Source of the DNA: an uncultured bacterium
GTDB lineage: Bacteria > Patescibacteriota > Minisyncoccia > Phycocordibacterales > GWA1-40-21
DNA: 64,000 nt
Assembly: GCA_903831305.1 (NCBI GenBank)
Contig: CAIKXE010000004.1
Span: 83,524-147,523 of the forward strand
Reading direction: 5' to 3'
Shown here: positions 8,103 through 54,771 of the stretch, one piece after another
Position numbering within the stretch: position 1 is the first letter of the stretch
Layout: each line of letters begins with the position of its first letter
Notes under the pieces: model-generated
What the model was told of the DNA's origin: nothing
What the model saw: the letters and a program-made list of their open reading frames with translations, nothing else
Databases searched by the model: none
Made by a program: the position numbers and the translations under genes

Positions 8103-9788
8103 TTAGTCACGACTTTCAATATCAATCACCCGCCCAAGCTCATCGAGTGAGCTTACTCCCTTCAAAATTCTGATCACGCCGTCTTGTTTCATATCTAAAA
8201 GATTTTGTGAGGCAGCCGCGGCCTTGATATCGCGATCCGAAGGGTTGTTAATAATAGCGTCCTCCACTTCCTTTTTCATCAAAATTACTTCTGTAATAGC
8301 AATACGCCCTTTATAGCCAGTTTTGTGACAGACTTCACAACCCACTGCTTGCCAGATCTTTTCAGTTTGAATATTAGCTAAATAAGTCTTGTCAGTAATA
8401 GTGGAGAGGGTGTGGTCAATAAATTCTTTTTCCTTGGCTGTTGGGGTGACCTGCGCTTTACAGTTGTTGCAGAGTTTTCTGATAAGTCTCTGGGCCATGG
8501 CCACGTTGATAGCGGAAGAAATAATTTTTGGGTTCACTCCGAGGTCAATCAGACGGGGGAAAGCACCCGCGGCGGTGTTGGTGTGCAAAGTAGAGAAGAC
8601 CAGGTGACCAGTCAAGGCGGAGTTGATAGCGATAGTAGCGGTTTCACCATCACGGATTTCTCCCACCATTATTACATCTGGATCCTGGCGCAAGGCGGAA
8701 CGCAAACCTGAAAGAAAAGTATAATCTTTTTCTTCTTCTACTTGGGTTTGGACAATACCTGGTAGGTGATATTCGATCGGATCTTCAATGGTAATTATCT
8801 TTACATCAGGAGAGCTGATCTTTTTCATAAAAGCATAGAGGGTCGTGGTTTTACCAGAGCCGGTGGGACCCGTGATGAGGAGCATGCCGTTTGGTCTCTT
8901 GATTTGTTCCAGTAAGGATTTTAAAGTGCGGTCTTCAATCCCAAGCTCTTCGATCGGCACAGCAATTGATTTTGGGTTTAAAAGTCTCATCACAATACTT
9001 TCATTATAGGCACCTGGTAAAACAGAGGAGCGGATTTCAATATCGTTATCTTGTATTTTGACACTAAAACGCCCATCCTGGGAGGTATTTTTTATGTTTA
9101 ATTTCATCCCGGACAATAATTTTATGCGGGACAAAAGTAATTCGTATGTATCAGTATCAAATTCAAAGACACTGATGAGCACGCCATCCAGTCTGAAGCG
9201 GATCCGGACATAAGCTTCTTCTGGCTCCACGTGAATATCAGAAGCGGAGAGGGCCAGGGCACCAGCGATCATTACTTCCATCATCTTGGAAATCTTATAA
9301 GCCTTTTTAAGGGACAAAATTTCCTTGATAATAGCTGTAACATCATCAACCTTTTTGATTTTATTCATATATTGAAGCACTTGGTCGGTAGAAATATCAA
9401 AAGTTCCGGCTGTGCTGTTTACTGCGTAAGATAAATCCTTATAGCGGTCCCAAGCCTTTGCTAGGCTAGCGGTGGTGGCCATGCTGGTCTGTATTTTATA
9501 ACCTTCATCAGCTAATTTTTTTAAAATAATGATTGCCTTATCATTCTTGGGTGAAAATACAGCGACTTGGATTTTTTTACCCACTTTTTCATAAACCGCT
9601 ATCTTTGCCTCACGAGCAAGCTCCTCCGGAATCAAACGAAGGGCGTCAGTATTTATCGGCACCGGCTTAAGATCAATAAAATTTAAACCATACCTAGTGG
9701 CTAGAATACGAATAACATCGTCTTCCTCTTTTTTATAGAGCTCTTCTAGACGCTTGGCTTGTTTATCTTCGTTAGCAAAGTCTGACAT
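8103..9788 (-). CDS. pilB: type IV pilus assembly ATPase PilB / GspE family
   Basis: Walker A GPTGSGKTT, Asp/His boxes, C-terminal Cys4 tetrad (CNNC...CEVC). Confidence 0.88.
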   Translation of the reverse strand: MSDFANEDKQAKRLEELYKKEEDDVIRILATRYGLNFIDLKPVPINTDALRLIPEELAREAKIAVYEKVGKKIQVAVFSPKNDKAIIILKKLADEGYKIQTSMATTASLAKAWDRYKDLSYAVNSTAGTFDISTDQVLQYMNKIKKVDDVTAIIKEILSLKKAYKISKMMEVMIAGALALSASDIHVEPEEAYVRIRFRLDGVLISVFEFDTDTYELLLSRIKLLSGMKLNIKNTSQDGRFSVKIQDNDIEIRSSVLPGAYNESIVMRLLNPKSIAVPIEELGIEDRTLKSLLEQIKRPNGMLLITGPTGSGKTTTLYAFMKKISSPDVKIITIEDPIEYHLPGIVQTQVEEEKDYTFLSGLRSALRQDPDVIMVGEIRDGETATIAINSALTGHLVFSTLHTNTAAGAFPRLIDLGVNPKIISSAINVAMAQRLIRKLCNNCKAQVTPTAKEKEFIDHTLSTITDKTYLANIQTEKIWQAVGCEVCHKTGYKGRIAITEVILMKKEVEDAIINNPSDRDIKAAAASQNLLDMKQDGVIRILKGVSSLDELGRVIDIESRD

Positions 9789-9841
9789 ACCAATATTATA
9801 ACATAAATGAATTTTAGATGTTAGGTTATAAGTATACTTTA

Positions 9842-9870
9842 TTGACAGATAATAGAGTGTGTGCTACTAT
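9842..9870 (+). promoter_or_regulatory. sigma70-like promoter TTGACA-17-TACTAT upstream of GC-rich lipoprotein ORF
   Basis: hexamers read directly; SD AGGAGG 7 nt before ATG at 9955. Confidence 0.5.
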
Positions 9871-9954
9871 CTTAGTTAGATATCTTGATAATCTTTCCCT
9901 GGTGTTACCTGTGTGGGTGCTCAGTGGAAGGAACAAAGAAGTTAGGAGGTTGAG

Positions 9955-10158
9955 ATGAAGAAGGTCTTTGTTTGTCTGGTGATGGTCGGGGTTTGTTTGG
10001 CGGCTGGAGGGTGCTTGATGCCGTATGACCCTTATGCCGGAGGGGTCTATGTGGAACCCGTCCCTCGGCCTTACTACGGTCCGGTGGTCGTCGTTCCGCC
10101 ACCTCCCGTCTACTACCATCACCGGCCACCACCTCCGCGTTACTACCGCCATCGGTAG
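9955..10158 (+). CDS. small Pro/Tyr-rich lipoprotein (67 aa) in GC-rich island
   Basis: signal peptide plus lipobox LAAGGC; strong SD; G/C-ending codons unlike neighbours. Confidence 0.5.
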   Translation: MKKVFVCLVMVGVCLAAGGCLMPYDPYAGGVYVEPVPRPYYGPVVVVPPPPVYYHHRPPPPRYYRHR

Positions 10159-10174
10159 GAATGCGGTAGGGCCA

Positions 10175-10213
10175 GGGCGCGCTTTGTGGAAGCTGATACC
10201 TTCCCCGAGCGCG
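10175..10213 (+). terminator. GC-rich hairpin plus T run
   Basis: agggcgcgc...gagcgcgctctttttgttt. Confidence 0.5.
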
Positions 10214-10250
10214 CTCTTTTTGTTTATAAAATTTATGCTAAAGTATAAAT

Positions 10251-10721
10251 ATGCTTTATTCAAGTAAAAGTGTGGCGGAAACAAACAAAATAGCAGCAGA
10301 TTTTCTACCAAAGATTATTGGCTCTCTCACAAATGATCAGAGTGGAGTGGCGGGAGCTACTGTCGTGGGGCTATTTGGCGACCTAGGTTCTGGTAAAACT
10401 ACTTTTACACAGTCTCTCGGTAAACATCTCGGGATAAAAGAAGTGATGACGAGTCCGACTTTTGTGATTGAAAAGATTTATTTATTAAAAAATCACTCCG
10501 AGGAATTTCCGGTGGCCTTTACTAGGTTGATCCATATTGATGCTTACCGCTTAGAAAAAGGGGAGGAATTACAAAGTCTCGGTTTTGCCGAATTATTAAA
10601 GGATCCTAAAAATTTGATTTTGATTGAATGGCCAGAGAGGGTAGTGGATATTTTGCCACCAAAGATGGTTAAAATTAATTTTAAGTTTGTTAGTGAGTTT
10701 GAGCGAGAGATTGAGTTTTAA
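10251..10721 (+). CDS. tsaE: tRNA threonylcarbamoyladenosine biosynthesis protein TsaE (YjeE)
   Basis: P-loop GDLGSGKTTF, SPTF motif, ~155 aa. Confidence 0.8.
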   Translation: MLYSSKSVAETNKIAADFLPKIIGSLTNDQSGVAGATVVGLFGDLGSGKTTFTQSLGKHLGIKEVMTSPTFVIEKIYLLKNHSEEFPVAFTRLIHIDAYRLEKGEELQSLGFAELLKDPKNLILIEWPERVVDILPPKMVKINFKFVSEFEREIEF

Positions 10722-14331: not shown

Positions 14332-15060
14332 TTATATTTTTTTATAAAAAGTCTTAAATATTTGTTTTTGGAATTCCGCAATCCTCTTACTCTCTATAGT
14401 CATACAAGTCTCAGAATTGTAATCAATGAAGGCTACTTTGTCCCCATAAATTATTTCTGTGACATTGTGCTCAAAAGGACCAAAATCCGGCGGTAATACT
14501 TTGGTAAAGCGGTCCAAACTCGGTCTCTTGTTCTTAGCTGTTTGAACATTGGTGATCACCTCGCGTTGTAGCCTTTTTTTATCACGCATTTTTTGATAAA
14601 TTCTCGGTACATATTTATCTTTTTTTTCCTGACCATTTTTGTTTGAACTGTAACGGTAAAAGGTGTCACCTTTTTTTAGACTCCTGACCACATCATCAAA
14701 TATTCTTTTAGTACCATCCTTACCCTCTAGGAATCTGATCTTGGGTCTCTTCTCACTGCTGGCATAGGCATCTTCCAAGTCTGGCAATATCTCAAAGAAA
14801 TCAATTTTTAAATCATCAAACAAGGTTTCCAGCCGGTTGGGTGGCTCAGCACCAAAGACCACGCTTTTCAGTTTTTGGGTTTTGGTCACCAGTTTTTTAT
14901 CCAGGAGGGCGGGGAGAGCTTTATAAATGAGGGGGCGGTGGATAGAAGTTTTCTCGGATATCTCGGAAATATTTGAAGTCCCCATCTCAAGTAGCGCCAA
15001 ATAGATAGCGCTTTCATTCTTGGTCAGCCCTATTTTCTCCAAAATTTTGTTTTTGTCCAT
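14332..15060 (-). CDS. TrmB-family transcriptional regulator (paralog 0)
   Basis: N-terminal wHTH LTKNESAIYLALLEMG; full-length similarity to the three regulators in the ABC-transporter locus. Confidence 0.7.
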   Translation of the reverse strand: MDKNKILEKIGLTKNESAIYLALLEMGTSNISEISEKTSIHRPLIYKALPALLDKKLVTKTQKLKSVVFGAEPPNRLETLFDDLKIDFFEILPDLEDAYASSEKRPKIRFLEGKDGTKRIFDDVVRSLKKGDTFYRYSSNKNGQEKKDKYVPRIYQKMRDKKRLQREVITNVQTAKNKRPSLDRFTKVLPPDFGPFEHNVTEIIYGDKVAFIDYNSETCMTIESKRIAEFQKQIFKTFYKKI

Positions 15061-25996: not shown

Positions 25997-27076
25997 TTGA
26001 GACATAAAATTATGTCGCAACAAGTTCCTTATTCTAAATTATTTACTCCACCCCGTTTCCTAGAGATGGCTTCTGTCTCGGTGGAAATAAAGCCCCGAGG
26101 TATTACTTTTCTATCCACTAAAAATACGGAGAGAGGTCTATTACCAGATGTTTATGGAGTGATACCCTTACCAGAGAATGCTGTCGCTTTTGGGGAGATA
26201 ATAAAAAAGGAGCCCGTTATCAAGGCTTTGGTGGAAATCAAAAAGAGAACCAAAGTTGACTTTGTCCGCTATTCTATCCCTGAGGAAAAAAGTTATATTT
26301 TTATGGTTAATCTACCGCTTCTAAAGCCTAAGGAAATGCGTGATATTTTGGATTTTAAAATAGAGGAAAATGTCTCTCTTTCAGCCAAGGAAGCAGTGTT
26401 TGATTATGATATCGTTCCTGGATCCACCTATAAATCTAATTTAGACGTAGTAGTTTCCGTGGTCCCACTAGATATAGTGGAAGAAATGCAGTCCCTATGC
26501 CTTCAGGCCGGGTTAACTCCTATTTCCTTTAGCTCAGAGTCTAGTAACGTCGCTCGATCCGTCATAAAGAGCTCTAATGAACAAGTGATTATTGTCGTAT
26601 ATATTCGTGAGGCTAACATCATATTATCGCTCGTTGTTCATGGTGTGGTGTGTCAGACCTCGTCTGTAAATTTTGGCAGCTCTACTTTTACGGATTTGCT
26701 GGCCAAGTATTTTAAAGTGTCTTTAGCTGAGGCAGAGGAGATAAAAAAGGAGAAGCTGTATACTGACAATCCTGACAACATGGAAGTCTTTTCTTATTTG
26801 ATCAACACTATTTCTGCTATTAAAGATGAACTTTTCAAGTTTATTTCTTATTGCAACGAGCGTGAAGACGTGACCGGTCAAGTTGATCGGGTTATCTTGT
26901 GTGGGCAGGATGCTTTGATGATGGGTTTTGATAAATATCTATCCCTAAATTTGGATATACGTGTAGACGTGGCAAATGTCTGGGTAAATAACTTTGATTT
27001 GGATAAGTATGTGCCAGACATTAATCATGTGGCTTCGCAGAATTTATTAACCGTAAACGGTCTTAGTTTATTATAA
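25997..27076 (+). CDS. pilM: type IV pilus assembly protein PilM-like (actin-like ATPase fold)
   Basis: size, position ahead of PilN/O-like bitopic proteins. Confidence 0.6.
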   Translation: MRHKIMSQQVPYSKLFTPPRFLEMASVSVEIKPRGITFLSTKNTERGLLPDVYGVIPLPENAVAFGEIIKKEPVIKALVEIKKRTKVDFVRYSIPEEKSYIFMVNLPLLKPKEMRDILDFKIEENVSLSAKEAVFDYDIVPGSTYKSNLDVVVSVVPLDIVEEMQSLCLQAGLTPISFSSESSNVARSVIKSSNEQVIIVVYIREANIILSLVVHGVVCQTSSVNFGSSTFTDLLAKYFKVSLAEAEEIKKEKLYTDNPDNMEVFSYLINTISAIKDELFKFISYCNEREDVTGQVDRVILCGQDALMMGFDKYLSLNLDIRVDVANVWVNNFDLDKYVPDINHVASQNLLTVNGLSLL

Positions 27077-27077
27077 A

Positions 27078-27623
27078 ATGGCAAATCTTATTACCGAAAA
27101 ACAAAAGAAGATAATCAAGGTGGATTATTTGGTCCGTCTCCTGGCTCTTTCTTTGTTTGTGGCCAGTGTTTTGGGATCGTTTATTTTGGTTTACATTGTT
27201 CCGTATTATGTTTTTTTGAGTAAAAAGGAGGATCAGGTAGCCAAACAGTTTGAAGCTATGATCACGAGTGATAAAAAAGGGGGAGCGGGAGCCGGGGCGT
27301 CAGAGATTGTGCGGGAGACCCTGGATCAGATGAAGGCGCTAGAGCTTTATAAACCAGGTCAGCTGGACCCCTCAGATTACTTCACCAAAATTATTGAAAG
27401 CAAAAATACCAATATTGGTTTGAAAAAGCTTACCTTCAGCCCTAGTGGTAAAAGTGAAATTAAATTTTTAGTCAGTGGTATTTCCTTAGACCGAGAAAGC
27501 TTGGTGGATTTTATTGAGGCTTTGAAAATTAAAGGCGGTTTTGCCAGTGTAGAATCACCGGTTTCTGATTTTGCCAAGGATAAGAATATTTCTTTTACTT
27601 TAAATATTATTGCTAAAATATGA
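27078..27623 (+). CDS. pilN: PilN-like bitopic membrane protein
   Basis: single N-terminal TM after basic stretch, follows pilM with 1-nt gap. Confidence 0.5.
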   Translation: MANLITEKQKKIIKVDYLVRLLALSLFVASVLGSFILVYIVPYYVFLSKKEDQVAKQFEAMITSDKKGGAGAGASEIVRETLDQMKALELYKPGQLDPSDYFTKIIESKNTNIGLKKLTFSPSGKSEIKFLVSGISLDRESLVDFIEALKIKGGFASVESPVSDFAKDKNISFTLNIIAKI

Positions 27624-28189
27624 AATTAACTTTTTCCAAAAAAATATTAGTCCTGGCCCTCACCGTTTTTACTGGTATTTTGGTTTTGGATATTGTCCTG
27701 GGAAATTTACTTATTAACAGGATCTCTAGTATTAATGGCCGAGTGGACCAGTTAAACACTTCTTCACAAAAACGAGAAAAGGATCTAGTCTTGACGGACT
27801 TCATCGCTAATTCAGCCGCTGAACGTGATCAGCTGGCTAGCTACTTTGTGGGGGCTGGTAATGCGCAGACCGTAGATTTTACCAAATATTTAGAGACGCT
27901 GGCTAAGGAGGCAGGAGTAACGGAGAAAAAGACTTTGAACTATCAATCAGTGACTGGTCTGGAATCATCGGTTAATGTGTCAGCTATTGAGTATCATTTT
28001 AGTGTTTCTGGCCGGTGGACAAATATTTTTTCTTTCTTACAGTTGATTGAAAATTTACCTAAGGTACTGGTTTTAAATAATGTGTCGTTGTCAGTAGCTT
28101 CAGAGGCAGTTTCTCTTAATGAGATAAGGGCCGGGGTGAGAGTTTGGTCATTGGACCTAGATTTTTCTGTTGTTAATTTGAAAAATTAA
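27620..28189 (+). CDS. pilO: PilO-like bitopic membrane protein
   Basis: single TM, coiled-coil; overlaps pilN stop. Confidence 0.45.
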   Translation: MKLTFSKKILVLALTVFTGILVLDIVLGNLLINRISSINGRVDQLNTSSQKREKDLVLTDFIANSAAERDQLASYFVGAGNAQTVDFTKYLETLAKEAGVTEKKTLNYQSVTGLESSVNVSAIEYHFSVSGRWTNIFSFLQLIENLPKVLVLNNVSLSVASEAVSLNEIRAGVRVWSLDLDFSVVNLKN

Positions 28190-28192
28190 AAC

Positions 28193-28477
28193 ATGATGAG
28201 AAATACTAATTTAAAAAATATAATTCGGGATTGGAAGATTGTGGTCAGTACCTTTGCCGTTCTTTTGATTATTGTATCAGCCCTAGCCTGGAAAGTGTAT
28301 TTGAGCCGGGAGATAGGTGGGGGATTCTTCTCAAGAGCAGAGGTGCCTACCGACACACAGGAGGTGACCATGGATAGTAAGAGACTAAAAGCCGATCTAT
28401 TAATCATGGAAACTAAACAGGCGGATTTTGTTAAAGTAAAAGCCACGCGCTCCCGCCTAGTTGACCCCTCGCTCTAA
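28193..28477 (+). CDS. small bitopic membrane protein, possible PilP-like
   Basis: operon position only. Confidence 0.3.
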   Translation: MMRNTNLKNIIRDWKIVVSTFAVLLIIVSALAWKVYLSREIGGGFFSRAEVPTDTQEVTMDSKRLKADLLIMETKQADFVKVKATRSRLVDPSL

Positions 28478-28506
28478 AACTGTTATATTCAGCAGGTCTG
28501 ATCCAT

Positions 28507-29681: not shown

Positions 29682-30494
29682 CTAATCTTTTAGTTGTTTA
29701 GAGTCCCAAGAGAGTTCAAAAATAGTTTTCATCATGTCATGTATGGCCTGATCCTCGATGATTACGCCAGTCTCATGATCCTTCTTGAAGTTAGTTATAG
29801 CTACTTTATTTGTTCCATATATTGTAATTTCTGAGGCGGAAGGAAATTTTCCCTTTTTTACAAATCGCATTTCTGGCCAAAACTTTTTATCCACATTACC
29901 ATAAAATATTTCTCTTGATTCTCTATCTTCTTTAGTATCTGGTAAAATAATGCGAGTGGTTATTCCGTTTTTGGTTTTTCTTTCTGTGTAGGATTTGAAT
30001 AAATCCTTATTGTCGGCATCAAGAAAGTTTGTAAACTCCTTACCGTTGGTGAAGTTTAACATTTCATATGGTTTCTGATTAGTGACCATATCGTCAAAGA
30101 TGTCAAAGAAGCCCTTTTTACCAGAATAATAAGTAATTTTTGCTTGGTCTTGGTTTGACGAGTAGATATTTTTTATATTTGGCAAGATTTCGGTTATCTC
30201 ACTAACAGATTCTTCTACTTGATGAAGTCTTGATTTAGTAAATTTTAAAACATTTTCCGGTTTTTCTATCTGGTAGTATATTTTATCCTTATTCATTATT
30301 TCATTGACGAGACCTTTTATGGATAGCGAGGTCAAAATATTATATGCGGTTGATCGCCGTATCCCTGCGTATTTGGCGATTCGGGAAGGGAAGGCTTCCC
30401 TCAGTTCCAGAACAGAAACGTATACCAGAGACTCTTTGTCAGTCAGGCCAGACTTCATTAGTTTTTTTATTAGCCCGATATTCTTTATTTCCAT
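29682..30494 (-). CDS. TrmB-family transcriptional regulator (paralog 1)
   Basis: wHTH LTDKESLVYVSVLELREAFPSRIAKYAGIRRSTAY; divergent to SBP gene. Confidence 0.7.
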   Translation of the reverse strand: MEIKNIGLIKKLMKSGLTDKESLVYVSVLELREAFPSRIAKYAGIRRSTAYNILTSLSIKGLVNEIMNKDKIYYQIEKPENVLKFTKSRLHQVEESVSEITEILPNIKNIYSSNQDQAKITYYSGKKGFFDIFDDMVTNQKPYEMLNFTNGKEFTNFLDADNKDLFKSYTERKTKNGITTRIILPDTKEDRESREIFYGNVDKKFWPEMRFVKKGKFPSASEITIYGTNKVAITNFKKDHETGVIIEDQAIHDMMKTIFELSWDSKQLKD

Positions 30495-30689
30495 AGTTTA
30501 ATAGTAACAGATGTGTGTAAACTGTCAATGTAAACCGACAGTCTCTGTATAATTCTACAATAGACTTCTATTTAGTCATATTTATAGTTTGGAGTGTCAA
30601 TCATTACACACATATTCTTAGTATGTGGTAGTCTTTTTGATAGAAGGTCTAGGTTATGACCTTCTATTTTAATCAATAATTTAAAAAAA

Positions 30690-31805
30690 ATGGAAAAAAT
30701 AAATAAGAAATGGTTAGTAAAAATTATTGTTTTGGTTTTAGTTATAATATTTGTCGGTTTAGCTTTTGGAATGACTAGGCCGGTTGCTAATAAATCAGTG
30801 AAAGTTGGGGTAATTTTACCCTTGACTGGGGCCGCCGCTGATTATGGGCAGGCCACAAAAAAGGGTATTATCTTGGCGGTGGCTAAGACTTTGAAGAATG
30901 ACAATATTAATCTGGAAGTTATATATGAAGATAGCCAGGCTGATCCAAAGTTAGCCGTTAGTGCTATGAAAAAATTGGTGAATATTGATAAAGTAAAATA
31001 TGTTATTGGCTTTACTAGCGGGGAAACTTTAGCTATTTGTTCTATCGCGGATACTAATAAGGTTATATTGCTTGGAACTGCCACCAGCCCTGATATCACG
31101 ACGAAGTGCGGGGATTATACTTTTAGGAACTCACCGTCTGATACTTATCAGGGTAAGGTTTTAGCAGACAAGGTTTTTGCTATGGGTTATAAAAATGTTG
31201 CTATTTTTTATATTAACAATGATTACGGAGTTGGTTTGAAAGATAAATTTATAAAGGATTTTGAGGGAACAATTACAAATGTGGAGTCACACAAGCCTAA
31301 TGATACGGACTTTAGAACTCAGCTGATGAAGATAAAAGCAAACAATCCCGAGGCAGTTGTTCTCATTTCCCATCTGGCCGAGGGATCAATAATCCTCAAA
31401 CAGCAGGTGGAGTTAGGGCTGGCCAAGCCTGTATTTTCTTCGGAGTCTTTGAAGGACTCCGCCGTATTCAAGCTTAGTAAGCTTTCATTAGAAAGATTAT
31501 ATATTAGCTTCATTAGCCAATACGAGGGTCCGGAATTTAAGGAGTACAAGGATAGTTATACAAAAGCTTATGGTTCGGAGTTTGGTATCTATTCAGATTA
31601 TCAGTATGATAATATTTTAACTATAGTTAATGCTCTAAAGATTTGTAAAGATGGAAGTGATATTGAGTGTGTAAAGAAAGAAATTTACAGAACTAATATA
31701 ATTGGTGCTACGGGCCGTATAAACTTTGACAGCAATGGTGATCGAGTTGATAAAGATTATTTTCTATATAAGGTACAGGATAATACTTTTGTTCCACTAG
31801 ATTAG
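30690..31805 (+). CDS. ABC transporter substrate-binding protein, Leu/Ile/Val-binding family (SBP-1)
   Basis: N-terminal TM anchor, VKVGVILPLTGAAADYGQ motif. Confidence 0.8.
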   Translation: MEKINKKWLVKIIVLVLVIIFVGLAFGMTRPVANKSVKVGVILPLTGAAADYGQATKKGIILAVAKTLKNDNINLEVIYEDSQADPKLAVSAMKKLVNIDKVKYVIGFTSGETLAICSIADTNKVILLGTATSPDITTKCGDYTFRNSPSDTYQGKVLADKVFAMGYKNVAIFYINNDYGVGLKDKFIKDFEGTITNVESHKPNDTDFRTQLMKIKANNPEAVVLISHLAEGSIILKQQVELGLAKPVFSSESLKDSAVFKLSKLSLERLYISFISQYEGPEFKEYKDSYTKAYGSEFGIYSDYQYDNILTIVNALKICKDGSDIECVKKEIYRTNIIGATGRINFDSNGDRVDKDYFLYKVQDNTFVPLD

Positions 31806-31815
31806 TCTTGCAACC

Positions 31816-32562
31816 TTAATCCTCCGTGGAGATATTCCACAAAATATTGAACAGGGCTAGGATGGTTTGGCTAAACTCGGGGCTCTCAATCACAAAGCCA
31901 AAATTTCCCCTTTCGGTAAAGATGATCGCTACCTTTTGCCCGATGACACAGATGGTATCTGGGATGAAGACCCCTTTAGGGGCATAGCGTATTTCCCGTA
32001 GCATTTCTGTGGCGCCACTGATAAGTGGTTCAGTGGGCTGATCCTCGCGCATACGGACATTTTTTACTTTGATCCTTTTGGCGATTCGGCGCCTGGCATA
32101 ATCCTTGAGGAAGTCATCACCGACGGTTTGCACCCGGGAAGCATTAGAGCTGACGTAATACATGGTTTTACTTCTGGTGGTCAGTGTTTCCTCAAAGATA
32201 TTTTGCATCCCTTTTTGCCCAAAATAATATTTCATCTTTGGTTTTTCTTGGTCCGGTGAGATCATAGCAGACAAAGCGGGGACTACTTGCTCAGCGTATT
32301 TTAAATTATTTTTAGCTTGGCGGATAAAGGCCGTAGGGGATTCTACTTTGTATTGCTTTTTCTTTTCTGTCAGCACCATGGTAATCAAGCCACGTCTGAT
32401 GAGCTCATCTAAGATAAGGTAACAAGTGGGCCTCTTTAGCCCGGATTTGGCCGCCACTTCCAGGACAGTAAAGGACACTAGCTCCAAGGCGGCCAGGTAT
32501 AGCCGGGCTTCCTTGTCACCGAGGCCTAATAGTTCTAATTGTTTCTCCTTTATCATTGCCAC
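31816..32562 (-). CDS. TrmB-family transcriptional regulator (paralog 2)
   Basis: wHTH GDKEARLYLAALELVSFTVLEVAAKSGLKRPTCY. Confidence 0.7.
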   Translation of the reverse strand: MAMIKEKQLELLGLGDKEARLYLAALELVSFTVLEVAAKSGLKRPTCYLILDELIRRGLITMVLTEKKKQYKVESPTAFIRQAKNNLKYAEQVVPALSAMISPDQEKPKMKYYFGQKGMQNIFEETLTTRSKTMYYVSSNASRVQTVGDDFLKDYARRRIAKRIKVKNVRMREDQPTEPLISGATEMLREIRYAPKGVFIPDTICVIGQKVAIIFTERGNFGFVIESPEFSQTILALFNILWNISTED

Positions 32563-32731
32563 CCTATTATAACAGAGCCAAGTATGTTGTCAAATTTATT
32601 GACATTTATCTACATACCTTAATATACGGCTATATGTAAGAATATTATGTAATATATAGTTTAAATTGTTTGACGTATTTTGGTCTTGTGATACAATAAT
32701 TCTGTTAGTTTATTAATTATCAATTAATCAT

Positions 32732-33856
32732 ATGAAAAAAATATACATATATTTAGGTTTAGTTGTTATTGTGCTTGCGGGGGCGGTTATGGTTTCTAGA
32801 AATCAAACCACACTTGGGCCGGTCAAGATCGGCGTTATCGGTCCAGTGACTGGTAGCTCCGCTGGGGTTTATTATGAGCCATTGAAAAAGGGGATTGATA
32901 TTGCTCTGGCGGGGATAAACAAGAGTGGTACTAAATTAGCGGTGGTGTATGAGGATGATCAGCTAGATGGTAAATTATCAGTTTCGGCCTATGCTAAATT
33001 AAAAGCAGAAGGTGTGCGGTACTTTATCCTAAACGGTAGTCCAGCGGCGGCCGCCGTCGCTCCACTGATCAAGGCTGATGGAAACGTGTCCATGGTGCCC
33101 TCAGCCCTCCTGACGGCTTACAAGGATGATAGCCCTCTGACTTGCCGTATTGCTCTGACCGCTGACAATTATGGTCCAGCTTTCACTGATTTGTTCTTAA
33201 ATAAATTAGATAAGAAGCAAATAGTCACCTTGGTTTCAAATACCGAGGGGGCGATGGCTATCTATAATGTATTCAAGGAAAAGTTTGAGGCCGCAGGCGG
33301 GCAGATAGTCCAGGCGGAAACCTTTGGCAAGGATGACATTGATTTCCGTACCCAGATTACTAAAATCAAAGCTAATAAAAAAGCCGAAGCGATTGTGGTT
33401 ATAAACTGGTCAAGCACTATTGTACCTATGCTTACTCAGATAAAAGAACTTGGCCTGACCTTACCGATCTTTGGTGACACGGGGACAATCAAGAATGCGG
33501 CTATCAAGGATTTGACTCTGGCTAACGGAATTACTTTCTTGGACTATTCTTTCACCACTGATGGTAACAATGTTTCAGGCATTGCTCAGAAATTTATCAG
33601 TGATTATGCTTCCTTAAATGGTGGAAGCAAGCCGAGTATCCAAGCCCTCCAAGGTCATGACTCTGTAAGTATCCTGGCTCATGCTCTTGCTCAGGCTGAT
33701 GCTAAGAACCCAACCAGTGTGGCAAACTATATTGTAAATAATATTAAGGATTATGAGCTGGCCGGTGGTAAATTCTCCTTCAACAGTACCTGTGAAGCTG
33801 ATAGAGATATTGCCGTCAGACAAGTGGTAAACGGGGAGATTGTAGATGTAAAATAA
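32732..33856 (+). CDS. ABC transporter substrate-binding protein, Leu/Ile/Val-binding family (SBP-2)
   Basis: VKIGVIGPVTGSSAGVYYE; paralog of SBP-1/3. Confidence 0.8.
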   Translation: MKKIYIYLGLVVIVLAGAVMVSRNQTTLGPVKIGVIGPVTGSSAGVYYEPLKKGIDIALAGINKSGTKLAVVYEDDQLDGKLSVSAYAKLKAEGVRYFILNGSPAAAAVAPLIKADGNVSMVPSALLTAYKDDSPLTCRIALTADNYGPAFTDLFLNKLDKKQIVTLVSNTEGAMAIYNVFKEKFEAAGGQIVQAETFGKDDIDFRTQITKIKANKKAEAIVVINWSSTIVPMLTQIKELGLTLPIFGDTGTIKNAAIKDLTLANGITFLDYSFTTDGNNVSGIAQKFISDYASLNGGSKPSIQALQGHDSVSILAHALAQADAKNPTSVANYIVNNIKDYELAGGKFSFNSTCEADRDIAVRQVVNGEIVDVK

Positions 33857-34022: not shown

Positions 34023-34394
34023 ATGAAGAAGATCATTGGTATGCTGGTGGCTGTCGCGGTCGTGGCGTTGTTTGCCACGGGGTGCGCGTCGCTCACTCGG
34101 GATCCGAACCGTGGGCGGGGCGTGGAGTATTCGGAGAAGATCCTCCGGCCGACGGGCGACGTCCCGAAGATCGGGACCGTGATCCACGTGATCGCGATTC
34201 TGAATCGGGAGGTGGAGTCTCAGGTCATCTGGACCGAGATGCCCACTGACTACGCCATGTTCCCGAAAGTTCGGGTCATGACGGTCAAGGGGTTTCGCGC
34301 CTGGTCGGAGGGTGTGGGTGACGAGAGAGACTCGTTGTGCATGGTCCAGTACGATAGTGAGACCAGCATACGCCTCATCCTCATGAAGGACTGA
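34023..34394 (+). CDS. lipoprotein (123 aa) in GC-rich island
   Basis: signal peptide plus lipobox LFATGC; GC3-rich codons. Confidence 0.5.
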   Translation: MKKIIGMLVAVAVVALFATGCASLTRDPNRGRGVEYSEKILRPTGDVPKIGTVIHVIAILNREVESQVIWTEMPTDYAMFPKVRVMTVKGFRAWSEGVGDERDSLCMVQYDSETSIRLILMKD

Positions 34395-37521: not shown

Positions 37522-38262
37522 TTATTTCTCCTCAGGGATCATCTCCCACATCACTTCAAATATTTGTTTTATGGCATCATGGATTTTTGAACTTTCAATT
37601 ATTATTCCCAGGCGGTCATCATAGTTTAAAATAGCCGTTTTATTTTTACCATACAAGAGTATCTCATTCTCCAGATTAAACTTTTTAGAATCCAAGGTCC
37701 GAGATTTGCGTAACTGCTCGCTATTTTTGAGAATATACGGTTTTAGCTCCTGGCTGTCTGGTAGGATAGCGCGGATCCAGATGTTTTTCTTTTGCCTTTC
37801 CGGAATATAATATTTTTCCTGAAAGGATTCACTACCAACTGAAGAGGAAGCGGAGAACCAGGATTGGATCTCTTGGTTTGGAGTAGAAAGTGTTTCTCGG
37901 TAGGCCTCCTTTATGCCATCTTCACCTTCAAAATACCGGACAGACGGTTTTTTATCAATCGCTGATCCCAGGGATAAAAGGCTGGCCATATTTTGTTCCA
38001 GTTCTTTTTTATTTTCATCCAGGATCGCTAGAATCACTTTAGGGCTCTGAGCATTATAATATTTCAAATTCCGCCTTTCTGATTGACTGACCAATCCCTT
38101 TTTTATCAAGTTTTCAAGCTCCATATAAGTAGTGGGCCTTTTTATGCCGGACTTTTGGGCAATGCGGGAAGCGGTGGTTTCTCCAAGCTCATAACTGGCT
38201 AGGTAAACTGAGGCCTCCTTAGGGGAGAGGCCAGCCTTAATCAAGGTGTCTAAATGGTTCAT
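37522..38262 (-). CDS. TrmB-family transcriptional regulator (paralog 3)
   Basis: wHTH LSPKEASVYLASYELGETTASRIAQKSGIKRPTTY. Confidence 0.7.
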   Translation of the reverse strand: MNHLDTLIKAGLSPKEASVYLASYELGETTASRIAQKSGIKRPTTYMELENLIKKGLVSQSERRNLKYYNAQSPKVILAILDENKKELEQNMASLLSLGSAIDKKPSVRYFEGEDGIKEAYRETLSTPNQEIQSWFSASSSVGSESFQEKYYIPERQKKNIWIRAILPDSQELKPYILKNSEQLRKSRTLDSKKFNLENEILLYGKNKTAILNYDDRLGIIIESSKIHDAIKQIFEVMWEMIPEEK

Positions 38263-38482
38263 AATTTATTTTAAATATTACTTTGTCAGTAAAATTGACA
38301 ACAGTGTAATAATAGTAATCTTCTATTAGTTTGTCAAGAATAATAAGGATATTTATTAACACGCTCATTTTCATAAAGTGTCAATTTGTATGACTATGTT
38401 GTTATATATTCTCTAGAGTGTATAATATATGGAGATATAAGGTTAATCCTTTTATTTTATTAGTAGTTAATTTTTAAAAAAT

Positions 38483-39607
38483 ATGGAACAAGCAAAAAAG
38501 AGTTGGTGGGTTGTGGGAGTTGTGATATTAATTGTTTTAATTATTATTGTGGTTATTTCTACTAAAAAACCCACAGAGACTGGGCCAATTAAGATTGGTT
38601 TTGTGGCCCCCCTTACTGGGGATGCTGGTGGTATAGGGCAGAGTATAAAGCAAGCGGCTGAGCTAGCGGTGTCTGAAATAAATATGGCCGGTGGTATCAA
38701 TGGGCAAATGGTTACCTTGTTATCAGAGGATGGTAAATGTGACGGTAAGGAGGCAGTAACGGCGGTGACCAAGCTTATCAATGTGGATAAAGTGGGGGTG
38801 ATAGTTGGTGGGGCTTGTTCCTCTGAAACGGTGGCTTCAGCTCCGATCGCGGAGAAGGCCAAGGTGGTGATGCTCTCACCTCTTTCTTCTAGTCCAGCTC
38901 TGACAACGGCAGGAGACTATATCTTCAGGGACTATCCGTCTGACTCCTTTCAGGGAGTAAAGGCGGCGGAATTTGCGGTGAACACCTTGAATGCTAAAAA
39001 GATTGCTATTCTGTCTTGTGTGGATGATTGGTGTCAGGGGGTGGCTCAGGTTTTCAAAGCTAAAGCTATTGCCTTGGGGGCGAGCCTGGTCAGTGAAGAA
39101 AAGTATGAGAAAAGTTCTACTGACCTAAAGACGCAGTTGACCAAGATAAAAGCGGCTAATCCAGACCTGGTATATTTTCTGGGTTATACAGATGGAACTG
39201 TTGTGGGTTTAAAGCAAGCCAAAGAACTAGGCTTGCAAGCTAAAATACTTGGTGGTGATGCGTGGAATGATCCTAAGATTGTGGCCAGTGTTGGTTTGGC
39301 TGCTGAGGGGATAGTCTATCTGGTCCCGACCTCGTTTAAGAATGCTTCATTTGAAACGGCGATGGTAAAAGTAAATGGTGGCAAGGAGATAACCATCGGT
39401 TCAAAGGAATCATATGATGCGGTGAAGATTCTGGCGCAGGTGATGCAGAAAGTCGGTACGGATAGTACCAAGGTAAAGAATGCTTTATACGAGGTCAAGA
39501 ATTATCAAGGAGTGTCTGGCAGTATTTCTTTCGATAAGAATGGAGATATTAGCAGTTCAAGTTATGATGTTAAAGTGATTAAGGGAGGTGTTGCAGTAAA
39601 CTACTAG
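38483..39607 (+). CDS. ABC transporter substrate-binding protein, Leu/Ile/Val-binding family (SBP-3)
   Basis: IKIGFVAPLTGDAGGIGQ; paralog of SBP-1/2. Confidence 0.8.
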   Translation: MEQAKKSWWVVGVVILIVLIIIVVISTKKPTETGPIKIGFVAPLTGDAGGIGQSIKQAAELAVSEINMAGGINGQMVTLLSEDGKCDGKEAVTAVTKLINVDKVGVIVGGACSSETVASAPIAEKAKVVMLSPLSSSPALTTAGDYIFRDYPSDSFQGVKAAEFAVNTLNAKKIAILSCVDDWCQGVAQVFKAKAIALGASLVSEEKYEKSSTDLKTQLTKIKAANPDLVYFLGYTDGTVVGLKQAKELGLQAKILGGDAWNDPKIVASVGLAAEGIVYLVPTSFKNASFETAMVKVNGGKEITIGSKESYDAVKILAQVMQKVGTDSTKVKNALYEVKNYQGVSGSISFDKNGDISSSSYDVKVIKGGVAVNY

Positions 39608-52740: not shown

Positions 52741-54681
52741 ATGAAAAGAAACCACGGTTTTACATTACTTGAAATCCTCCTCGTCGTCGGTCTCATCGCT
52801 ATCCTCGCTGGTATCGTGATTCTTGCCCTAAATCCCACCAAGATGTTCTCCCAAGTCCGTAATGCTCAGCGTAAGGCTAATCTGACAGAAATCAATAAAG
52901 CCGTCTACCAATATTATATTGATAACTCCCGTTATCCCGCCACCTTAACCTCCATCGCCACTGAGATCTGTAATACCGGGGCTACTTCTACTGGTCATAG
53001 TATAAGCTGTACTGGTTTGATTGACCTCTCAGCTCTCGTCCCTACTTATATGGTCGCCATCCCCACTGACCCCAGTGGGGCCATAAATACCGGTGGAGCC
53101 GGTTATAAAATAGCTAGTGACCCTATTGGTAAACCGTACCTTCAAGCCTCTCGCGCGGAACTCTCGGTCAGTATTTACATTGGTAATAGCACTGGAGTTC
53201 TAGGTACAAACTGGGATATGCCTGGAAGCTGGACTACACCTACTACAACCGGTAATCTCCGTTACTGGGTGGCCTCCTCGGCTGGCTCTTGGAATGATAC
53301 CGCTAACTGGTCTACTACCTCTGGTGGAGCGGGTGGCTCCTCGGTCCCCGGTTCTACCGAGGATGCCTACTTTGATGGTAGTGGAAATGGAGCTTGTACC
53401 ATAAATGCCACCGTCAATGTTAAAGGTCTAATCCTAGAAGGCTATTCCGGCACTATCACTCAAGGCTCCTATGCTGTGACGGTGGGGACTGATGGTTACT
53501 CTCAAGCCTCGGGGACCTTTACTGGTTCAGGTGCTGGCTCAGCGGTTACTGTAAATGGTATCTATAAATTGGCGGGAGGGGTGTTTACAGGGACAAGTGG
53601 GACGTTAACCGTGGCTGGTAATTTTACTAAAACGAATGGGACGTTTGCGCATAATAGCGGGACGACAAAAATGACTGGCTACGGGAGTACCTTTACTAGT
53701 GGTGGTACTACCTTTGGTAGTCTTACTTTTTATTCAACTGCCTATACCGCAAATCCATATGTCCTAGCCGACGATTTTGTTGTAGCAGGAGATTTAACAA
53801 TATCTTCAGCCGCATATGGATGGGTTACAGCCATATCTCCTCGCACAATTACCCTTCAAAGTAATTTTTATCAAACAACATCTTTTAATAGTGCACTTGG
53901 TGGTTTTGATACGAGTAATATAACTCTTATTATGACAGGAAGCGGAAAGACTTTTACTCTCTCATCCGGACAATTCAAAGCTAACTTAAGTTTACAAGGT
54001 GCAACTACATTAGCTTACTCAGCATATTTACCTAATTATTCTGGGACTCTCACTATTGATGCAAGTGTGGGTCTTGGCGCGGCATTAAATTGTGGTTCAT
54101 TAGTCATAAATTCCGGTAAGACCCTCACCACAAACAACTATGATGTTACCATTAGCGGCTCCTTAATTAATAGTGGCACGTTTACTTTGGGAACAAGTAA
54201 TGTAACATTAAGAAATGCATACAATTCAATAGTAACTCATACAACTGGTGGTATTGCCTTTAATAATCTGACACTTGGTGGAGCGAGTATAACTGGATCT
54301 CAAATATTAGCGGATAATTTTACAGTAGCTGGGACTTTGACGATCGGCGACGTCTCCTGGCTAAATACGGTTACTGCCACTTCTACTCGAACGATTACTC
54401 TTCAGGGTAATTTTGTTCAGACATTGCTTTCTAATAGTAACCTCGGCGGTTTTGATACAAGTAACATTACTCTTAATATGACAGGAAGCGGAAAGACTAT
54501 TAATTTTACTCAGGGTAAATTTAAGGCTAATTTAAATATTGCTAATTCTGCCTCAATTTCTTTGGTTAATAATTTAGTTGTTACTAGTGCCACGACTACT
54601 ATAAATGCCGGTGGTACATTAAACAAAATGGGCTATACCTTGACCGGGACTTTAGTAAATAATGGTACTCTAATACCTTAA
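52741..54681 (+). CDS. large type IV pilin-like protein (646 aa) with Thr/Gly/Ser-rich internally repeated C-terminal region
   Basis: prepilin motif G-FTLLEILLVVGLIAILAGI; N-terminal 140 aa paralogous to 50189 ORF; tandem ~180-aa repeats. Confidence 0.65.
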   Translation: MKRNHGFTLLEILLVVGLIAILAGIVILALNPTKMFSQVRNAQRKANLTEINKAVYQYYIDNSRYPATLTSIATEICNTGATSTGHSISCTGLIDLSALVPTYMVAIPTDPSGAINTGGAGYKIASDPIGKPYLQASRAELSVSIYIGNSTGVLGTNWDMPGSWTTPTTTGNLRYWVASSAGSWNDTANWSTTSGGAGGSSVPGSTEDAYFDGSGNGACTINATVNVKGLILEGYSGTITQGSYAVTVGTDGYSQASGTFTGSGAGSAVTVNGIYKLAGGVFTGTSGTLTVAGNFTKTNGTFAHNSGTTKMTGYGSTFTSGGTTFGSLTFYSTAYTANPYVLADDFVVAGDLTISSAAYGWVTAISPRTITLQSNFYQTTSFNSALGGFDTSNITLIMTGSGKTFTLSSGQFKANLSLQGATTLAYSAYLPNYSGTLTIDASVGLGAALNCGSLVINSGKTLTTNNYDVTISGSLINSGTFTLGTSNVTLRNAYNSIVTHTTGGIAFNNLTLGGASITGSQILADNFTVAGTLTIGDVSWLNTVTATSTRTITLQGNFVQTLLSNSNLGGFDTSNITLNMTGSGKTINFTQGKFKANLNIANSASISLVNNLVVTSATTTINAGGTLNKMGYTLTGTLVNNGTLIP

Positions 54682-54771
54682 TTTCGGACAAGGCCTCGCC
54701 TTGTCATAATTACTTTTGGTGAATTTTGATAATAAATTATTTTTTATTCTTTTTATGATATAATTATCTCA

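Follow-up and report, generated by a model that had tools for sequence, protein, structure and literature searches.

The DNA analysed here (the window) is the whole 64,000-nt stretch, and the element under study occupies its pilB-tsaE slot, by which we mean the intergenic gap of 462 bp (9789-10250) between the divergent genes pilB (8103-9788, minus strand; ruvB lies beyond it) and tsaE (10251-10721, followed by polA). Within the slot, positions 9842-10225 form an autonomous transcription unit on the plus strand that encodes a 67-aa precursor. The unit opens with a promoter at 9842-9870 (-35 TTGACA at 9842-9847, a 17-nt spacer and -10 TACTAT at 9865-9870, with a TGn extended -10 whose TG is at 9862-9863) and continues with a 5' untranslated region (UTR) at 9871-9954, about 78 nt long from the inferred start near 9877, which includes a Shine-Dalgarno (SD) sequence, AGGAGG (9944-9949), separated by 5 nt from the start codon (ATG, 9955). 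The open reading frame (ORF) spans 9955-10158 (67 codons, 67 aa, MKKVFVCLVMVGVCLAAGGC followed by LMPYDPYAGGVYVEPVPRPYYGPVVVVPPPPVYYHHRPPPPRYYRHR). Its codons 1-20 (9955-10014) specify a signal peptide made of an MKK n-region, a 16-residue uncharged h-region and a lipobox-like AGG-C, with the Cys20 codon at 10012-10014, and the mature peptide (10015-10158, 47 residues after Cys20, plus the stop codon) contains a degenerate 30-nt tandem duplication, 73% identical (10096-10155), encoding PPPPVYYHHR and PPPPRYYRHR, which was seen in a repeat search, while Tandem Repeats Finder found nothing there. The unit closes with an intrinsic terminator at 10174-10225, an interrupted GC-rich hairpin (10174-10217; centroid -25.9 kcal/mol) followed by TTTTTGTTT. 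The initial annotation had named this promoter, SD, ORF and GC hairpin terminator, and each of them is present as it described.

We read this unit as the gene of a small exported, probably lipid-anchored envelope peptide which is the local allele of a gene characteristic of the pilB-tsaE slot, a reading to which, taken as a whole, we assign a probability of about 0.6. The mature part consists of 29% Pro, 19% Tyr and 17% Val, in agreement with the Pro/Tyr/Val-rich region first noted, and has a net charge of +3, three His, a C-terminal Arg and PYYGPVVVVPPPPVYYHHRPPPPR-type stretches. An AlphaFold2 model of the peptide (pLDDT, predicted local distance difference test score, of 69) showed a helix at residues 2-19 and coil after residue 19, that is, no regular secondary structure in the tail, which fits the polyproline-II-like tail that had been proposed.

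A search of 5.8 billion proteins, the kind of search that had been proposed for this peptide, found the identical protein on 5 contigs and a single homologue, P0002 (P-numbers denote database proteins), of 66 aa and 81% identity, and a HMMER scan of 1.84 billion representatives matched only P0002 and P0003. The latter was rejected as spurious, being an 890-aa repeat protein in which four repeats add up weak scores. The peptide is otherwise an orphan, with 2 sequences among ~15 billion; it had no match in Pfam, NCBIfam or a PDB sequence search and no paralogue in the window, and our literature search found nothing on lipoprotein processing in the candidate phyla radiation (CPR) or on Pro/Tyr-rich small lipoproteins. 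P0002 sits on a 557-bp contig, L002 (L-numbers denote related loci, L002 being the homologue's contig and L003-L041 the others), where the start of tsaE follows as well. That contig ends in a Nextera adapter (CTGTCTCTTATACACATCT...) at 490-557 and its last ~60 nt are an assembly artefact, so the apparent divergence of tsaE in L002 is not real.

The comparison with L002 decides whether the stretch is a protein gene. The two ORFs differ at 34 nucleotides, distributed 7/4/23 over the three codon positions, and the ratio of non-synonymous to synonymous substitution rates (dN/dS) is 0.089 for the whole ORF, rises to 0.37 over the signal peptide and falls to 0.022 over the mature part, where 19 synonymous and 2 non-synonymous changes were counted at a dS of ~0.9. 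This pattern marks the locus as a protein gene under strong purifying selection, in which the exact mature sequence matters. GC-rich islands in AT-rich genomes are often RNA genes, several frames are open across the region, including a 161-aa antisense ORF at 9826-10311, and the 5' UTR is better conserved than the synonymous sites of the ORF, all of which could suit a structured non-coding RNA or cis-regulatory element with a fortuitous ORF, or else a real antisense gene. However, the substitutions follow the codon positions of the sense frame, and the antisense ORF is not the constrained one, since its first positions fall on the variable third positions of the sense ORF. Likewise, Rfam returned nothing above noise for 9600-10400 (best 19.7 bits against a gathering threshold of 46.5, all E-values > 2), the z-scores of the 5' UTR and terminator folds are both non-significant, the signal peptide of the product is well formed, and the occupied slots of related genomes hold a signal-peptide ORF at the same place. 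The possibility raised at the outset that relatives might carry the sequence as a conserved non-coding RNA is thus contradicted by both the Rfam result and the coding pattern, and for the body of the ORF we consider the RNA and antisense explanations refuted, with hardly any probability left to them. A regulatory 5' UTR is possible and compatible with a peptide gene: this region is 79% identical to that of L002, against ~50% identity at synonymous sites (proportion of synonymous differences, pS, 0.48), which suggests a regulatory or stabilising role. A hairpin is predicted there (CUUUCCC...GGAAGG, z = -1.48), in which CUUUCCC could pair with the upstream GGAAGG decoy or, weakly, with the SD; the two sequences compared contain no compensatory pairs.

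In order to place the gene in a wider context, we compared the slot among relatives recovered by PilB scans, namely five GTDB genomes (PilB 84-88% identical), which are metagenome-assembled genomes (MAGs) labelled Paceibacteria, Saccharibacteria or uncultured bacterium, and ~25 metagenome contigs. The genes pilB and tsaE are divergent neighbours in ~27 of these loci. About 20 slots are occupied, with a gap of 300-820 bp that holds one signal-peptide ORF of 48-190 aa on the tsaE strand, and six (L018, L019, L021, L025, L028 and L034) are empty, with a gap of 41-87 bp. A TTGAC[AT]-17-TAnnnT promoter (spacer of 16 in L027) was found in 19 of the 20 occupied slots and is a perfect TTGACA-17-TATAAT in 12; that of L002 is TTGACT-17-TATCAT. 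The occupied slots also have an AAGGAG- or AGGAGG-type SD, and most have a GC hairpin with a T-run before the conserved TGCTAAAGT promoter of tsaE. In L002 the hairpin and T-run are kept with a different stem sequence. DNA homology between the present slot and the others is confined to the pilB promoter, the SD and start, the terminator (partly homologous to those of L022 and L033) and the tsaE promoter.

The distribution of empty slots bears directly on how the gene came to be where it is. A neighbour-joining tree built from the PilB N-terminus places the empty slots in scattered positions, implying at least 4 separate events, and L018 and L019 keep a terminator-like T-run before the tsaE promoter. 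In the outgroups L030 and L032 (PilB 60-69% identical) the slot is 2.1-2.3 kb long and holds two secreted or lipobox low-complexity ORFs in each. The products encoded there include long Tyr/Gly/Asn/Gln-rich repeat proteins, for example with GSYGNYD repeats. Since most relatives and the outgroups are occupied and the empties are scattered, the simplest reading of these comparisons is that the slot was anciently occupied and repeatedly deleted, without any insertion in this genome, and that the peptide gene is one allele of an undescribed slot gene that would extend across a clade of Patescibacteria (Paceibacteria-like MAGs).

The initial annotation had instead taken the unit for an insertion, a GC-rich mini-cassette, and several features could be invoked in favour of its recent acquisition from elsewhere. 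In six relatives pilB and tsaE are just 41-87 bp apart; the unit is flanked on both sides by copies of an imperfect direct repeat of 26 nt (9818-9843 and 10235-10260, 20/26 identical, with 3 of 400 shuffles as good), and loss of what lies between the copies would produce a gap of 45 bp, collinear with the empty slots; and GC and GC3 (GC at third codon positions) are above those of the neighbouring genes. Against this, the comparison of pilB-tsaE regions that had been suggested for dating the insertion showed no recent event: occupied slots are the majority, outgroups included, the borders of all occupants (promoter, SD/start and terminator) are homologous, and the same gene is present in L002 at a dS of ~0.8-0.9. 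None of the other 19 occupied slots has the 26-nt flanking repeat, a search for target-site duplications or terminal repeats gave nothing consistent at the slot, no matches were found in viral contigs, phages or plasmids, and the terminator, which occurs once in the window, is no repeated element. Inverted repeats I1, I2 and I5 were tried as mobile-element ends and rejected, as they merely reflect the similar leaderless promoters of pilB and tsaE. A recent foreign acquisition is therefore very improbable, and the sequence comparisons largely refute it.

The base composition, which might be taken as a further sign of foreign origin, can be explained otherwise. The bias itself is real, with a GC of 0.62-0.65 over 10000-10199 against a window mean of 0.41. 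In the peptide ORF, GC at first and second codon positions (GC1 0.69, GC2 0.46) exceeds that of long ORFs (0.49 and 0.35), as does GC3 (0.63 against 0.42 +/- 0.09), and the excess arises partly from the amino-acid composition of the product and partly from the raised GC3. In almost all genomes the slot ORF has a higher GC3 than the pilB next to it, and as this elevation runs across the slot family, the GC island is a family property and not a mark of foreign origin.

The two borders of the slot are themselves promoters. On the left, the pilB promoter (9795-9824, minus strand; CTAACA-18-TATAAT with TG) has its -10 TATAAT at 9800-9795, and its -35 and -10 positions are kept in relatives; with 6 nt between this -10 and the start codon of pilB (ATG, 9788), the pilB mRNA is probably leaderless. 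On the right, the tsaE promoter (10236-10253, plus strand) is conserved in all relatives, is 89% identical to that of L002, and has a TGcTAAAGT extended -10 (10236-10244) ending 6 nt before the tsaE ATG (10251), for which reason the tsaE mRNA is probably leaderless too. Relatives keep this leaderless-looking layout of pilB and tsaE, whose promoters are similar to one another (inverted repeat I1). Between the divergent -35 boxes of pilB and the peptide gene there is a perfect 10-bp palindrome, AAGTATACTT (9830-9839), which is not conserved in relatives.

At the protein level the slot products form a loose family. Composition-corrected blastp gave a weak but significant network of alleles (L013-L027, E = 6e-27; L017-L041, 1e-16; L004-L027, 4e-11), and in an alignment of the 14 lipobox-bearing alleles only G-C was nearly invariant, alongside an N-terminal module '..SGGTTE..TPDGG....TYHN.GSG' and a C-terminal module 'VYVTPAPxVGGLLP'. 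In the mature regions Cys, Pro, Gln, His, Trp and Tyr are over-represented 2-3 fold and Arg and Gly ~1.6 fold, and Lys (0.19x), Leu, Ile, Met, Asp, Phe and Ala are under-represented; the net charge of these regions ranges from -2 to +7. Half of the alleles examined for it (10/20) end in Arg (RHR, RQR, RRR, FHR, QYR and others), although Arg makes up 6% of the mature regions (binomial p = 8e-8), and such an ending may protect against C-terminal processing proteases. AlphaFold2 applied to the 124-aa L041 allele gave a pLDDT of ~40 after residue 25 and found just the signal-peptide helix, and both modelled alleles, this one and L041, are accordingly predicted to be disordered. Five slot alleles compared with Pfam belonged to no family (L005 had a sub-threshold compositional match to GRP, E = 0.0046), and a family profile run against the 5.8 billion proteins returned 5 sequences; all database members are annotated as 'hypothetical'.

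The peptide studied here is the second-shortest allele, the 48-aa ORF of L011 being shorter. Its profile aligned with that of the slot family by hhalign (92.5% probability, E = 4.8e-7, residues 1-42), and by blastp its residues 1-29 match L017 and L041. The family N-module is missing from it, and its resemblance to the PPPVYY repeats of L006, L014 and L022 is compositional, the similarity to L006 being seen only without composition correction. By these comparisons, the peptide joins the family through its position, regulatory borders and signal peptide, with a mature part that is similar only in motif and composition.

The rate at which the mature regions change is difficult to reconcile with steady divergence. 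Synonymous sites of pilB are saturated against all other loci (pS 0.70-0.86), whereas the peptide ORF has a pS of 0.48 against L002, and L002 should therefore come from a much closer relative. With a dN/dS of 0.02 in the mature part, gradual change would be expected to leave similarity to L003-L041, yet nothing alignable remains. Across 153 genome pairs, mature-region similarity was not significantly correlated with PilB identity over a 250-aa marker (Spearman 0.11, p = 0.17): L013 and L027, which have the closest pair of alleles (55% identical), come from genomes whose PilB is just 71% identical, and pairs with 86% PilB identity have no mature-region similarity. Remodelling of the mature region by frameshift was considered and rejected, because all tblastx matches between slots are in-frame with both ORFs. 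Although a 250-aa marker is no proof, the data speak for alleles having been replaced or exchanged, or for allele classes that are old, rather than for steady divergence. A bolder proposal would make the slot a recombining hypervariable 'surface identity' locus, where a single, very strongly expressed gene encodes a disordered, Tyr/Pro/Gly/Gln-rich, membrane-tethered peptide whose alleles are swapped between lineages through the conserved flanks and repeatedly deleted under host or phage selection, each fixed allele being held under tight purifying selection; the present allele would then be a minimal 48-residue polyproline/Tyr/Arg 'bristle' contacting a partner cell or the wall. We put this forward as speculation that is rather unlikely to hold in full.

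A number of observations weigh against the reading of the unit as the gene of an exported, probably lipid-anchored envelope peptide belonging to the slot family. The promoter and terminator scores taken alone are not above chance, as the window contains 44 promoter matches of 10/12 or better on both strands, a local scan found 4 matches where 4.8 were expected, and the terminator fold has a z of -1.09 against shuffles; since these scores are unremarkable, the case for both signals depends on their positional conservation in ~20 related genomes. The mature part has no composition-corrected blastp match to any allele, and its likeness to the family core (GVYVEPVPRP against SVYVTPAPRV) was equalled by 26 of 5000 shuffles in a motif test that was post hoc. 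The A-G-G-C of the peptide has no Leu, Val or Ile at -3, and the canonical [LVI][ASTVI][GAS]C is missing in 22 of 22 slot proteins. The lipoprotein-processing genes lgt and lspA were not seen in ~84 kb of this genome with Pfam labels, which amounts to ~10% of a typical CPR genome, and motif scans for them in 345 kb of locus sequence gave no match and are uninformative. Three paralogous Peripla_BP_6 substrate-binding proteins encoded in the window (30690-31805, 32732-33856 and 38483-39607) have uncleaved hydrophobic N-terminal anchors without a lipobox Cys. Five alleles (L003, L006, L013, L014 and L022) have lost the Cys and carry AxA-like, signal-peptidase-I-type ends, L013 having G-Y where its relatives have G-C. 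Finally, the adhesion or envelope-contact role is a hypothesis built on composition and location. The absence of a lipobox Cys from substrate-binding proteins is unusual for a monoderm-type bacterium and bears on protein lipidation in this organism.

Most of these points concern lipidation, which appears to be the weakest step of the mechanism. As lgt and lspA were not seen and the substrate-binding proteins do not have lipoboxes, lipoprotein processing in this organism should be regarded as a putative step, and the peptide could instead be exported without lipidation, either cleaved by signal peptidase I and released or kept on an uncleaved N-terminal anchor, giving a free or anchored disordered peptide. 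Together with the genomic observations just mentioned, the loss of the Cys in five alleles and the occurrence of the canonical L-[AS]-[GA]-C in no allele speak for this alternative. However, in 14 highly diverged alleles nothing but the G-C that closes the h-region is nearly invariant, which argues for selection on the Cys; relaxed lipobox patterns do fit; the window contains a second lipobox ORF, the only other one (34023-34394, 123 aa, MKKIIGMLVAVAVVALFATGC..., with no Pfam family and not of low complexity); and the sequence inspected for lgt and lspA was just that tenth (~10%) of what a CPR genome typically holds. In the peptide itself, the MKK n-region with 16 uncharged residues is in keeping with a lipoprotein signal (h-region of 7-22 residues), Cys20 fits the G+LPPv2 and PS51257-like patterns, and AGGC is kept in L002. 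The signal peptide and lipobox of the initial annotation therefore survive in part, as a Sec-type signal with a conserved Cys and relaxed patterns are there and the canonical lipobox pattern is not. From the relaxed lipobox and the conserved Cys, putative lipidation at Cys20 is plausible, and export without it, though it deserves to be kept in mind, seems unlikely.

Under the lipid-anchored reading, Sec would export the precursor, Cys20 would be diacylglycerol-modified and signal peptidase II would cleave the signal peptide, with a predicted processed N-terminus of diacylglyceryl-Cys-LMPYDPYAGGVYVEPVPR. The result would be a non-globular peptide of 48 residues, polyproline-II or extended in form, cationic and aromatic, which would be held on the outer side of the cytoplasmic membrane and reach up to ~15 nm if fully polyproline-II (an estimate at 3.1 Angstrom per residue). 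Given the conserved consensus promoter, the strong SD and the terminator of its own, it is probably made at a high level. It may act as a surface or envelope contact peptide that binds the cell wall, an S-layer or partner cells via Tyr, Arg and His, and its alleles are probably exchanged or replaced between lineages and sometimes deleted. Cultivated Patescibacteria are episymbionts (PMC11623550, PMC9894109), all of them living attached to other microbes (PMC11623550), and in that light a host-contact role is reasonable. The adjacency to pilB carries little weight, since pilB is a lone gene outside any pilus operon. Other pilus-related genes in the window are scattered, with PilM-like and downstream genes at ~25997-28500, and 52741-57591 encodes a protein of 646 aa whose N-terminus is weakly of the N_methyl (pilin-like) type and, after it, a DUF87/TraG-like ATPase (DUF8128) of 939 aa.

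Composition could also be taken to suggest a Pro/Arg-rich effector of antimicrobial type, comparable with oncocin or Bac7, that acts on a host or competitor cell. The PRP motif, the richness in Tyr and Arg, the cationic C-terminal tail and the small size would suit such a function, as would the attachment of cultivated Patescibacteria to host bacteria (PMC11623550). However, the likeness to oncocin and Bac7 is compositional only, other alleles are rich in Gly, Gln, Thr and Tyr and in many cases have no positive charge, the peptide would be kept on the producer cell by a lipid or membrane anchor, and no immunity or export genes are adjacent, so that we consider this function very improbable.

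Patescibacteria (CPR) are mostly uncultured and their surface molecules are largely unknown. By itself the peptide is an ordinary lineage-specific hypothetical lipoprotein, and the slot houses an undescribed family, of modest interest, whose exported and disordered peptides turn over fast within one CPR clade. A near-consensus promoter conserved across the clade, an exported disordered product, allele turnover decoupled from the flanks and repeated loss together make it a cheap candidate for a surface or host-range determinant in that clade, and the case illustrates that orphan mini-ORFs in such genomes can be validated by comparative data alone. Elsewhere in the window, a gene for a TrmB-family regulator and one for a substrate-binding protein form divergent pairs that recur at 29682-33856 and 37522-39607, and a fourth TrmB gene lies at 14332-15060. 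Perfect or near-perfect TTGACA/TATAAT-type promoters were found upstream of TrmB genes on the minus strand (-35 starts at 32593, 30528 and 38337).

Several known systems resemble the slot gene in one respect or another. Plant extensins, with their Ser-Pro4 and Tyr motifs, recall the PPPPVYY-type motifs of the peptide, its polyproline-II propensity and its extracytoplasmic location, a likeness of composition in which Ser-Pro4 units and homology are both missing; extensin hydroxylation, glycosylation and peroxidase cross-linking are eukaryotic. The likeness to Gly/Tyr-rich proteins is again compositional, without homology. Generic signal peptidase II lipoprotein signals share the n-region, the h-region and a Cys after small residues, here Cys20, and differ in the canonical Leu at -3, which is missing. 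Among very small lipoproteins, Lpp of Escherichia coli has a 58-aa mature form, a strong promoter, a stable monocistronic mRNA, its own terminator and a basic C-terminus, and serves as an envelope tether; it is alpha-helical, assembles as a trimeric coiled coil and is cross-linked to peptidoglycan through its C-terminal Lys. The slot peptide is similar in being a very small lipoprotein-like product with its own promoter and terminator and a basic C-terminus, and differs in its 29% Pro, predicted coil and C-terminal Arg, and in having no homology to Lpp; moreover, the present organism is not known to have an outer membrane.

The best functional analogy may be with the variable lipoproteins of Mollicutes. 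In the Vsp proteins of Mycoplasma bovis, the Vpma proteins of M. agalactiae and the Vlp proteins of M. hyorhinis, a conserved 5' upstream region and prolipoprotein signal precede mature regions that are highly divergent, repetitive, of low complexity and often Pro-rich (PMC3720590). No homology to Vsp or Vlp was found, the searches of 5.8 and 1.84 billion proteins having given just P0002 and the spurious match. The slot also differs in being a single gene per genome at a fixed site, as against a multigene locus, and in having no recombinase and no homopolymer or repeat tract in its promoter for phase variation; it varies between species and not within a population (the identical protein being on five contigs), and this peptide carries one 10-aa duplication only. 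What the two would have in common is a conserved upstream and signal region joined to a divergent mature part in small proteins, in both cases in host-associated bacteria with reduced genomes.

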